Source: a phage. From it: a stretch of 64,000 nt of DNA. The number at the start of each line of letters is the position of its first letter. The stretch's first letter is position 1. The position numbers and the translations under genes are program-made. Of this stretch, positions 59,908 through 60,807 are shown in pieces. Under the pieces are notes generated by a model. It was not told where the DNA came from, did not search any database, and saw only the letters and a program-made list of their open reading frames with translations. The stretch lies in sequence record NC_135730.1; one strand, written 5' to 3'.

Positions 59908-59936
59908 TTGACAAACTTTGCTTAACAGTGTAATAT
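59908..59936 (+). promoter_or_regulatory. promoter of tRNA cluster
   Basis: TTGACA, 17 nt, TAATAT about 60 nt upstream of first tRNA. Confidence 0.55.
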
Positions 59937-59994: not shown

Positions 59995-60069
59995 GCCCTG
60001 TTAGCTTAGTGGATAAAGCAGCGGCCTTCTAAGCCGTTGACACTGGTTCGAGTCCAGTACGGGGTGCCA
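59995..60069 (+). tRNA. tRNA-Arg (anticodon UCU)
   Basis: manual cloverleaf; anticodon loop CTTCTAA; T-loop GGTTCGAGTCC; CCA present. Confidence 0.7.
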
Positions 60070-60073
60070 AATT

Positions 60074-60160
60074 GGGGAGTTATCCCGTAGAGGTAGCGGT
60101 GTAGACTGTAAATCTATTGTCATTGCGACTCGGGTGGTTCGACTCCACCACTCCCCACCA
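60074..60160 (+). tRNA. tRNA-Tyr (anticodon GUA), type II
   Basis: acceptor GGGGAGT/ACTCCCC; loop CTGTAAA; long variable arm; T-loop TTCGACT. Confidence 0.7.
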
Positions 60161-60274
60161 AATTTATATTTTTAGATGCATAAATAATACAGATAATGGC
60201 ATTGATATTTATCGTCGTTTATACTAGTCACTAACTGCTCGAAAATCAGTGTCATTATCAGTATAATTTATAAA

Positions 60275-60365
60275 GGAGGGTAGGGAGCAATGGTGCTCAA
60301 GCGGTCTTGAAAACCGTCCCGTTGAGGATGACTCGATGATGGTTCGATTCCATTACTCTCCGCCA
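60275..60365 (+). tRNA. tRNA-Ser (anticodon UGA), type II
   Basis: anticodon arm CGGTCTTGAAAACCG matches E. coli tRNA-Ser as recalled; long variable arm. Confidence 0.75.
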
Positions 60366-60463
60366 CATTGTTGACCTTGTAATTAAGCGAAAGCCGGAAG
60401 CAGAACCGGATTATCAAATGTTACAGTCGTCATCGCCGACTAGCAACATGGTCAACATACTGA

Positions 60464-60562
60464 GCTAGGTAAGCCCTTTGGCAAGGGCGAGGATTTTTAA
60501 TCCTGAAAATAGACGAGGTAGTCGTTGAATACATAGGTGGTTCGATTCCATCGCCTAGCACC
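60464..60562 (+). tRNA. atypical type-II-length tRNA-like gene, anticodon ambiguous (UUU or UAA)
   Basis: good acceptor, D and T arms; anticodon stem only 4 bp; about 29-nt variable region. Confidence 0.4.
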
Positions 60563-60567
60563 TTTTT

Positions 60568-60643
60568 GCTGATGTAGCACAATCGGTAGTGCAATTGATT
60601 TGTAATCAATAGGTTGTAGGTTCAAGTCCTGCCATCAGCACCA
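60568..60643 (+). tRNA. tRNA-Thr (anticodon UGU)
   Basis: all four stems pair cleanly; loop TTTGTAA. Confidence 0.8.
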
Positions 60644-60644
60644 A

Positions 60645-60719
60645 GGCCCTGTAGCTGGAAGGTTCAAGCAAGCGACTCATAATCGCCAGACGGTGGTTCA
60701 ATTCCACCCAGGGCCACCA
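60645..60719 (+). tRNA. tRNA with CAU anticodon (Met or lysidine-Ile)
   Basis: acceptor GGCCCTG/CAGGGCC; loop CTCATAA; T-stem GGTGG/CCACC. Confidence 0.7.
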
Positions 60720-60730
60720 AATAGTAAATA

Positions 60731-60807
60731 CTCCGCGTAGCTCAGCTTGGTAGAGCGCCTGATTTGGGATCAGGAGGTCGAGTGTTCGAATCACTCCGTG
60801 GAGACCA
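60731..60807 (+). tRNA. tRNA-Pro (anticodon UGG)
   Basis: C1:G72 first pair typical of bacterial tRNA-Pro; loop TTTGGGA; clean cloverleaf. Confidence 0.8.

Follow-up and report, generated by a model that had tools for sequence, protein, structure and literature searches.

A conserved tRNA-like RNA in the tRNA clusters of Vequintavirinae phages, with a freely changing anticodon-position loop and an oversized variable arm

Phage-encoded tRNAs are known to counter several defense systems that act on tRNAs. Phage T5's tRNA-Lys counters the AriB nuclease of PARIS, which cuts between positions 40 and 41 (PMC11464382, PMC12409363); phage tRNA-Lys similarly acts against PrrC and phage tRNA-Tyr against retron-Eco7 (PMC11555353); and phage tRNA-Thr(UGU) acts against P2-OLD, with a shorter anticodon stem that contributes to resistance yet keeps decoding intact (PMC12445682). 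The AriB site has the context UAAUC/A in tRNA-Lys and UAAUC/C in tRNA-Asn (the slash marking the cut), a change of A41 to C lowers cleavage, and overexpressed viral tRNAs are possibly competitive inhibitors of the enzyme (PMC12409363). For some of the allo-tRNAs, whose diverse anticodons include UAU, a role as regulatory non-coding RNA instead of decoder has in turn been proposed (Mukai et al. 2017, PMC5389517). Here we analyze a 64,000-nt stretch of the sequence record NC_135730.1 (hereafter the window), which derives from an rV5-like phage (Vequintavirus), and in it a single element, a 99-nt tRNA-like RNA gene on the plus strand (60464-60562, inclusive of its A73-CC end) that is embedded in a tRNA cluster. 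We present evidence that it belongs to a family of structured RNAs maintained across the Vequintavirinae, and consider whether its members decode, or mimic tRNAs for another purpose.

The initial annotation of the window had proposed an atypical tRNA-like gene at this place, and its existence is confirmed by gene prediction, homology and folding. ARAGORN, a check which that annotation had suggested, calls a 99-nt "tRNA-??? anticodon (atcc)" on the plus strand at exactly 60464-60562. A match to the Rfam tRNA model (RF00005) spans 60464-60560; it scores 29.4 bits where the gathering score is 29 (E = 0.0022 in 3 kb). The unconstrained minimum-free-energy fold is a five-arm cloverleaf of -34.4 kcal/mol (z = -3.4), which is equaled by 1 of 200 shuffles. 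The covariance model R1 of the element's own family (see below) scores it at 99.5 bits. RF00005 reaches its threshold only through the matching acceptor, D and T arms, and in its alignment the element lacks position 27 and has a variable region longer by about 26 nt. The fold drawn by ARAGORN itself, with a stem AUUUU/AAAAU, an 8-nt loop and a 4-base anticodon AUCC, was rejected: the four nucleotides that follow the D stem are left unpaired, and the relatives do not share the fold. The AUCC of that fold and the loop CCAUCCAG of the Seuna- and Mydovirus copies share letters, but are non-homologous in the alignment. The other Rfam families (tmRNA, YrlA, ribozymes, riboswitches) show no match at the locus down to E = 10.

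Public labels for the element are inconsistent: the rV5 reference has none, Murica has tRNA-OTHER (Asp or Gly), the BASEL phages have tRNA-Lys (AAA), and phage JLBYU08 and an Erwinia phage have tRNA-TERM. The rV5 genome paper counts six tRNAs and omits the element, and the BASEL paper names just its prediction tool. We found no paper that describes the element, and the papers on PARIS, OLD, retron and Schlafen systems make no mention of the Vequintavirinae. The family appears to be previously undescribed.

A 1-kb query around the element is 99.8% identical to Escherichia phage rV5 and many relatives. BLAST with the element itself recovers 128 phage records, mostly near-identical, along with diverged copies in Avunavirus and Seunavirus; a Seunavirus copy used as the query recovers 188 records from phages of Escherichia, Klebsiella, Salmonella, Cronobacter, Erwinia, Enterobacter, Proteus and Raoultella; and exact-pattern scans of the conserved core yield 9 IMG/VR loci and 18 metagenome loci. 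The conserved 22-nt pattern has no exact match in 185,579 bacterial and archaeal genomes, which speaks against a bacterial or prophage origin. The element is present as a single copy per genome in five genera of the Vequintavirinae (Vequinta-, Avuna-, Seuna-, Mydo- and Henunavirus), in the same place in their tRNA clusters. We aligned 26 distinct homologues and built the model R1 on them. Every member scores 95-124 bits with it, whereas ordinary tRNAs score at most 29 bits, the top matches outside the family being class II tRNAs (24-29 bits). ARAGORN makes no call of the element in Seuna-, Mydo- or Henunavirus.

In two Vequintavirus lineages the element is no longer intact. Phage V18 has a deletion that leaves the element's 3′ half attached to the 5′ part of tRNA-Tyr (L006 in our numbering, 951-1047; 33.8 bits with R1), and in O157 typing phage 4 (KP869102; L062, about 640-732) just the 3′ part of the element remains, fused to a Tyr-like body. 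Hence, the element is dispensable at least in culture. Both recombinants have also lost tRNA-Ser, and V18 is without an intact tRNA-Tyr as well. The hybrid of typing phage 4, in which the anticodon arm still reads GUA and the acceptor stem is largely compatible, might from its sequence be a working chimeric tRNA-Tyr.

The tRNA gene directly upstream of the element in Seuna- and Mydoviruses is atypical too, in that ARAGORN assigns it 2-base or 4-base "anticodons" (6- or 8-nt loops); it lies at 1431-1505 in L024, L027, L028, L029, L031 and L032, at 1429-1505 in L025, at 1419-1494 in L005 and at 1430-1505 in L023. In the Salmonella-phage copies its loop is ACGAUUC, with C33 and U37, and its GenBank label is Ile, Ser or none. 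Thus, in these phages the element has as its neighbor another tRNA-like gene whose anticodon loop is non-canonical.

The alignment of the 26 homologues (A5) supports a shared structure. Standard pairs occupy 92.9% of its pair cells, as against at most 45% when the partners are slid by 1-3 columns, and 16 of the 26 modeled base pairs have changed on both sides. Pairing is complete (100%) in the acceptor, D and T stems and reaches 98.4% in the anticodon-position stem, with compensatory changes in all four, and in every member the unconstrained fold is the same five-arm cloverleaf. The elbow pair between positions 19 and 56 is G-C in 16 sequences and U-A in 10; this covariation of a tRNA elbow pair indicates that the L shape is conserved. 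Constraint on the primary sequence is equally evident in the class-B Mydovirus copies (so named for their variable-arm hairpin, described below), which, two loop nucleotides apart, show 0-3 nt differences over 107 positions, their 160-nt flanks being often only 50-80% identical. No frame on either strand is open throughout the family. We therefore hold with high confidence that the element represents a family of functional structured RNAs; the first of the three options raised in the initial annotation (functional tRNA, decoy or pseudo-tRNA) is supported by covariation and constraint as far as a functional RNA goes.

Along the molecule, the acceptor stem consists of GCUAGGU (60464-60470) paired with GCCUAGC (60553-60559); it has 7 bp including U7-G66, is paired in 100% of cells, and four of its seven pairs have changed on both sides among the 26 homologues. 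Positions 8 and 9 (60471-60472) are both A. The A8 is invariant, where tRNAs usually have U8, and positions 8 and 14 are A and U in 26/26 sequences. The D arm, GCCC-UUUGGCAA-GGGC (60473-60488), has three of four stem pairs covarying, and can alternatively form a tRNA-Sec-like arm with a 6-bp stem and a 4-nt loop UGGC, as it does in the minimum-free-energy fold of every member; the two extra U-A pairs of this form never vary across the family, so no covariation bears on them. Positions 15 and 48 are U and A in 26/26 sequences, a non-canonical orientation like that of 8 and 14, and G18 and U55 are invariant. Of the usual tertiary contacts (U8-A14, R15-Y48, G18-psi55 and G19-C56), the last two are thereby kept, 19-56 as either G-C or U-A. 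The T arm, GGUGG-UUCGAUU-CCAUC (60536-60552), is again paired in 100% of cells, and its C56 covaries with D-loop position 19. The earlier description of the acceptor, D and T arms as canonical therefore holds for the 7-bp acceptor stem and the T arm, but the D arm and the core are not fully canonical, given A8, U14 and the ability of the D arm to fold in the tRNA-Sec-like 6-bp form.

The hairpin at the anticodon position (60490-60504) can be read in two registers: AGGAU-UUUUA-AUCCU, with 5 bp and a 5-nt loop, or AGGA-UUUUUAA-UCCU, with 4 bp and a 7-nt loop. The initial annotation had described the latter, with an anticodon of UUU or, in another register, UUA/UAA. Comparative data favor the former: the fifth pair (31-39) is C-G in 14 sequences, U-A in 10 and C.A in 2, which amounts to a canonical 5-bp stem. 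UUU is nevertheless readable in the 4-bp register, where the loop UUUUUAA offers U33, UUU and A37 together with the discriminator A73, a combination of UUU and A73 that is seen only in Vequintavirus; the UUA/UAA registers find no support. Elsewhere in the family the loops are UUAUA in Avunavirus and AUCAA in Henunavirus and three metagenome contigs (5 nt, like UUUUA in the window), and CAUCCA, CCUCAA, CAGCCA and others (6 nt) in Seuna- and Mydovirus, where a loop of 6 or 8 nt is the only option and A, C or U occupies position 33. The combination of a 5-bp anticodon stem, a 7-nt loop, U33 and a purine at 37 is accordingly not conserved in the orthologs. The two central loop nucleotides are AU, CA, CG, UU, AG or CU among otherwise identical RNAs, and going by sequence the loop center is best read as the sole unconstrained spot of the molecule, the opposite of what would be expected of an anticodon. 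Positive selection on this hypervariable dinucleotide need not be invoked: since the flanks of the same genomes are themselves so diverged (50-80% identity), two unconstrained positions suffice to account for the variation.

Between this hairpin and the T stem lie 31 nt (60505-60535), about 16 of them unpaired (7 + 9), so that the variable region is of about 30-31 nt rather than the 29 nt given previously. Its 5′ flank, GAAAAUA (60505-60511), is unpaired in all predicted folds and begins with an invariant GAAAA (60505-60509); its 3′ flank, GAAUACAUA (60527-60535), contains AAUACAUA (60528-60535), invariant in 26/26 sequences. The hairpin that the initial annotation had noted between them is present as GACGA-GGUAG-UCGUU (60512-60526), with four Watson-Crick pairs and one G-U. 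It differs by lineage: in Vequinta- and Avunavirus it has 5 bp, with an A-U to G-C compensation in Avunavirus; class A hairpins, of about 5-8 bp, occur in Seunavirus and some Mydovirus; class B hairpins, with a 3-4-bp stem and a conserved 12-nt loop GAA(C/U)UAACAGUA, are found in other Mydovirus, Henunavirus and two metagenome contigs; and a third type is seen in one further sequence (L050). Certain Mydovirus copies with identical other arms carry either a class A or a class B hairpin (P8734_Mydo versus AV124, VLCpiM5b and others; L027 versus L029-L034). It follows that, inside an RNA gene of 109 nt, the hairpin has been exchanged as a module that joins the rest at the invariant flanks.

Two other explanations for the variable-arm flanks were tried and rejected. 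An antisense regulator is disfavored by the lack of any excess of complementary sites: the reverse complement of the invariant GAAUACAUAGG has, with at most 2 mismatches, 18 matches in the window against 18.1 expected. Pairing of the flanks with each other over a distance lacks support: UGU/ACA could form in three sequences (L053, L044 and L030), but other members have A.C there with no compensation.

At its 3′ end the window copy reads A73-CC followed by a U5 trailer (60560-60567) up to the start of tRNA-Thr at 60568. All six neighboring tRNAs encode CCA, which makes the element the sole gene of the cluster with an incomplete CCA. Of the 26 unique sequences, 18 encode U73-CCA, as do the homologues in Seuna-, Mydo- and Henunavirus; Vequintavirus has A73-CC-U, and Avunavirus has U or C followed by ACA. 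A 7-bp acceptor stem, a 5-bp T stem, a T loop UUCRAUU and, in most sequences, an encoded CCA end characterize the family, though in the window the CCA would need repair. A consensus scan also flags 60534-60567, comprising the T arm, the acceptor 3′ strand and ACC-UUUUU, as terminator-like; the U5 tract is specific to Vequintavirus.

Taken with the genomic context, these features lead us to propose, tentatively, that the element is a tRNA mimic, processed and CCA-ended but non-decoding. It would engage a tRNA-binding protein and plausibly serve as a decoy for tRNA-targeting defense nucleases. The absence of decoding is the better-supported component of this proposal, and one that we consider somewhat probable: sister genera with the same body carry loops of 5-6 nt with a covarying closing pair, and this argues against a common decoding function and in favor of a decoy or mimic. 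The anti-defense role, which we derive from the cluster context, is to be held more loosely. The rV5 cluster encodes tRNA-Tyr(GUA), tRNA-Thr(UGU) and the Lys(UUU)-like element, and these anticodons are the reported targets of, respectively, the PtuAB of retron-Eco7, P2-OLD and AriB, and PrrC and AriB. Further, the stretch U36-A-A-U-C-C41 of the window copy resembles the AriB site, with C41 being the change reported to reduce AriB cleavage.

In the mechanism that we envisage, the element would be co-transcribed with the tRNA cluster, as its position and the promoter upstream suggest. Its 5′ end would be freed by RNase P and its 3′ end by the RNase P cut at the tRNA-Thr 5 nt downstream, followed by trimming; the CCA-adding enzyme would then complete ACC to ACCA in the window phage, most relatives having the CCA encoded. 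Its fold is an L shape with a normal elbow of acceptor and T arms, as shown by the covariation that includes the 19-56 pair, and it would present two unusual surfaces, namely a closed and freely changing loop at the anticodon position and an oversized variable arm based on GAAAA and AAUACAUA. These surfaces might engage a tRNA-binding protein, in which case the RNA would most likely act on anti-phage nucleases that cleave tRNAs, as a decoy or as a competitive inhibitor, with the Vequintavirus copy displaying what appears to be a tRNA-Lys(UUU)-like stem-loop (UUUAAUC). More speculatively, and in our estimate improbable in this specific form, the family could constitute a dedicated class of phage tRNA mimics, L-shaped, CCA-ended and non-decoding, each combining an evolvable bait loop with a binding platform of GAAAA...AAUACAUA and titrating or inhibiting PrrC, RloC, AriB, OLD, PtuAB or Schlafen. 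Were this true, it would represent an RNA-based anti-defense factor distinct from the known supply of replacement tRNAs.

Several points weigh against a non-decoding decoy. The decoy role is read from context, and the two lineages without an intact copy show that the phages can do without the element, at least in culture. The alignment A5 is fitted to its model, with an effective sequence number of 1.32, so the compensatory changes stand for few independent events, and the 19-56 switch and the D-stem switch fall in the same clade and may be one event. Moreover, the loop of the window copy is also readable as a proper 7-mer, UUUUUAA (U33, UUU, A37), which with A73 fits Lys identity; tRNAscan-SE-based annotations call the element tRNA-Lys; and functional phage tRNA-Thr with shortened anticodon stems exist (PMC12445682).

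The main alternative, which we deem unlikely, is that in Vequintavirus the element became, or always was, a tRNA-Lys(UUU) that decodes, whose anticodon stem has 4 bp and whose variable arm is outsized. Charged by LysRS via UUU and A73, it would serve as a nuclease-resistant substitute for the host tRNA-Lys(UUU) destroyed by PrrC, RloC, PARIS AriB or Schlafen-type nucleases, its odd stem and body making it a poor substrate for them. The identity of E. coli LysRS substrates resides in the anticodon, above all U35, and in A73. As the change to A73 coincides with the UUU loop, a decoding role is kept alive for the window phage: its loop U32-U33-UUU-A37-A38 comes with A73, whereas the sister genera with other loops have U73 or C73, which suggests that the loop and the discriminator changed together. 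The BASEL label of tRNA-Lys (AAA) and the RF00005 score of 29.4 against 29 are consistent with this. So are the rescue of infection from PARIS and PrrC by phage tRNA-Lys (PMC11464382, PMC11555353), the tRNA-Thr that resists P2-OLD partly by its shorter anticodon stem and still decodes (PMC12445682), the presence in the window of the very A41-to-C change that reduces AriB cleavage (PMC12409363), and the Thr(UGU) and Tyr(GUA) genes of the same cluster. Yet the same body in most relatives has loops of 5, 6 or 8 nt that lack U33, so that the function shared by the family is not canonical decoding; the covarying 31-39 pair closes the window loop to 5 nt, and the minimum-free-energy fold to a UUU triloop; A8/U14 replaces U8/A14, around 16 nt of the variable region are unpaired, and the CCA is incomplete unlike in the neighbors; and in Avunavirus, UAU with U73 or C73 is unfit for Ile identity.

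A second alternative, which we rate as quite improbable, dispenses with any link to defense nucleases and holds that the RNA is a charged, non-ribosomal tRNA-like donor or cofactor, or else a scaffold recruited by a phage protein via the variable-arm platform. Aminoacylation is suggested by the conserved U73-CCA with G1-C72 and C2-G71 and the invariant CC in the Seuna- and Mydovirus loop, a combination that resembles the GlyRS identity set. Recruitment would be consistent with the conservation of the variable-arm flanks and of the class B loop GAA(C/U)UAACAGUAC over deep divergence, even as the loop center is unconstrained. These identity elements are, however, not conserved across the genera, no partner gene is consistently adjacent (the neighbors being tail-fiber and hypothetical genes, or hypothetical and spanin genes, depending on the genus), and the idea is speculative.

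Even less credible is a derivation from the tRNA-Sec/allo-tRNA recoding systems, whereby an opal (UCA) suppressor would have been ancestral to the family, and the window copy would be a purposely miscoding missense or nonsense suppressor. The best match of the relatives within the Rfam clan is indeed tRNA-Sec (RF01852), at 37.6 bits for the Erwinia phage copy and 23.2 and 20 bits for Mydovirus copies, and the RF01852 alignment of the Erwinia phage copy has a D arm with a 6-bp stem and a 4-nt loop, and a loop CAUCAAA against the Sec consensus CUUCAAA. The tRNA-TERM labels in GenBank of the Erwinia phage and JLBYU08 copies, the long variable arm similar to that of allo-tRNAs, the Sec-like D arm and the diverse anticodons (PMC5389517) point the same way. 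But all the scores are below the gathering score of 47, and for the window itself RF00005 is a better match than RF01852. Rather than the 13-bp branch (8/5 in bacteria), UCA and G73 of tRNA-Sec, the element shows a 7/5 branch, a discriminator that is A, U or C, and in the window a loop without UCA; members that do bear UCA have A at 33, and the anticodon stem of the element is shorter than normal, not longer.

Finally, a decaying pseudo-tRNA, a chance fold, or conservation arising from a protein-coding or DNA-level constraint, for which one could cite the borderline Rfam score, the deletion or hybridization of the element in two Vequintavirus lineages and the short hypothetical open reading frames annotated over it in some records, is effectively excluded because the conservation is extreme relative to the flanks (0-3 nt differences in Mydovirus elements against flanks of 50-80% identity), compensatory changes affect four stems and one tertiary pair (with two-sided changes in 16 of 26 pairs), no common frame is open, and the cluster position is the same in five genera. 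Thus, of the options in the initial annotation, the pseudo-tRNA falls away, while a functional RNA stands, with a decoy or mimic being favored.

The cluster in which the element resides comprises seven genes on the plus strand (59995-60807), which ARAGORN calls as tRNA-Arg(TCT), tRNA-Tyr(GTA), tRNA-Ser(TGA), the element, tRNA-Thr(TGT), tRNA-Met(CAT) and tRNA-Pro(TGG). Upstream of it, a consensus scan finds a sigma-70-like promoter, TTGACA-17-TAATAT (59908-59936, plus strand), which is denoted P(tRNA) in the rV5 annotation and is likely the start of the transcript that carries the element; a weaker second promoter-like site, TCGAAA-17-TATAAT, is present at 60239-60267. This site is overlapped by a long imperfect hairpin with about 15 continuous pairs in the gap between tRNA-Tyr and tRNA-Ser (60161-60274; -26.2 kcal/mol, z = -4.45, none of 200 shuffles being as stable). 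The gap between tRNA-Ser and the element (60366-60463) holds a candidate second structured RNA (z = -2.6), in which a closing stem GUUGACC/GGUCAAC encloses the hairpins CCGG-AAGCAGAA-CCGG and GUCG-UCAUCGC-CGAC. In other Vequintavirus variants this stem is swapped for the complementary AGGAUCA/UGAUCCU or GGAUCAUG/CAUGAUUC with the core kept; the candidate finds no match in Rfam, and recalls the stable RNAs of the T4 tRNA cluster. The CAT-anticodon tRNA (60645-60719) is labeled tRNA-Met in rV5 and Murica, and tRNA-Ile (AUA, implying lysidine) in the BASEL genomes. We also observed that 18 GenBank "Campylobacter phage" records (MG0656xx; unannotated, host C. jejuni) are 99-100% identical to rV5-like coliphages over the element region, and resemble mislabeled or contaminant coliphage genomes.

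The resolution of these alternatives bears on several questions. Phages of the rV5-like, PVP-SE1-like and Mydo-like groups, which are in wide use for phage therapy and biocontrol, all carry the element under missing or contradictory labels (Lys, Asp or Gly, suppressor). If it is a nuclease-resistant tRNA-Lys, it would add to the tRNA architectures able to decode in E. coli, and would predict phages that escape PrrC or PARIS. If instead it mimics tRNAs and does not decode, it would give the first example of an RNA decoy against tRNA-targeting immunity, and offer a handle on the long-standing puzzle of the role of stable tRNA-like RNAs in phage tRNA clusters, T4 species 1 and 2 among them. Either way, it is a compact test object, with an invariant variable-arm platform, a free loop and natural deletion variants.

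Comparison with known systems places the element closest, in its genomic setting, to these T4 species 1 and 2 RNAs (rnaC and rnaD), small structured RNAs with tRNA-like 3′ parts that lie beside tRNA-Arg in a phage cluster and are co-transcribed and processed with it. They differ in their length of 119-139 nt and in having no five-arm cloverleaf, and no homology is detectable: R1, run with its filters off, gives 9 bits on rnaC and no match on rnaD. With the tRNA-like domain of tmRNA (bound by SmpB) and the bacterial Y RNA YrlA (bound by Rsr), the element shares the acceptor/T-arm elbow, the lack of anticodon decoding in the reading that we favor, and a long additional helix at the variable-arm site; unlike them it has all five arms, no mRNA-like part, no Ro-binding helix and no match to their Rfam models at this locus.

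Among tRNAs proper, the class II types (Leu, Ser, Tyr) have in common with it the 7/5 branch, a long variable arm with a hairpin and a canonical T loop, and recombinants with tRNA-Tyr do occur. The bacterial class II variable arm, however, has 0-2 unpaired basal nucleotides in the setting of a canonical core and loop, where the element has 7 and 9 conserved ones; U8/A14 is replaced by A8/U14; the loop is not a conserved 7-mer; and the discriminator varies between A, U and C. The tRNA-Sec and allo-tRNA types share its long variable arm, a D arm that in the element can take the form of a 6-bp stem with a tetraloop, absence of a canonical U8-A14 and diversity of anticodon loops among close relatives (UUU, UAU, UCA, NCC). 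They are set apart by their 8/5, 8/4 or 9/3 branches, in contrast to the 7/5 branch found in 26/26 sequences (the 12-bp acceptor branch of allo-tRNAs being arranged 8/4 or 9/3), by a discriminator G where the element mostly has U or A, and by a longer anticodon stem, that of the element being normal or shorter with a 5-6-nt loop. The phage-only distribution and the roughly 16 invariant or near-invariant unpaired nucleotides that flank the variable arm are likewise peculiar to the element.

Lastly, with the anti-defense tRNAs of phages it shares a cluster whose members match nuclease targets, a UUU-containing loop with A73, and an altered or shortened anticodon stem and C41, the latter two being reported ways to resist nucleases (PMC12445682, PMC12409363). 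Those tRNAs are otherwise canonical class I molecules with a 7-nt loop that demonstrably decode; the element departs from them in its non-canonical core, its variable region of 31 nt and its relatives, whose loops cannot be of 7 nt. It is among the non-canonical tRNA-like RNAs that this family belongs.

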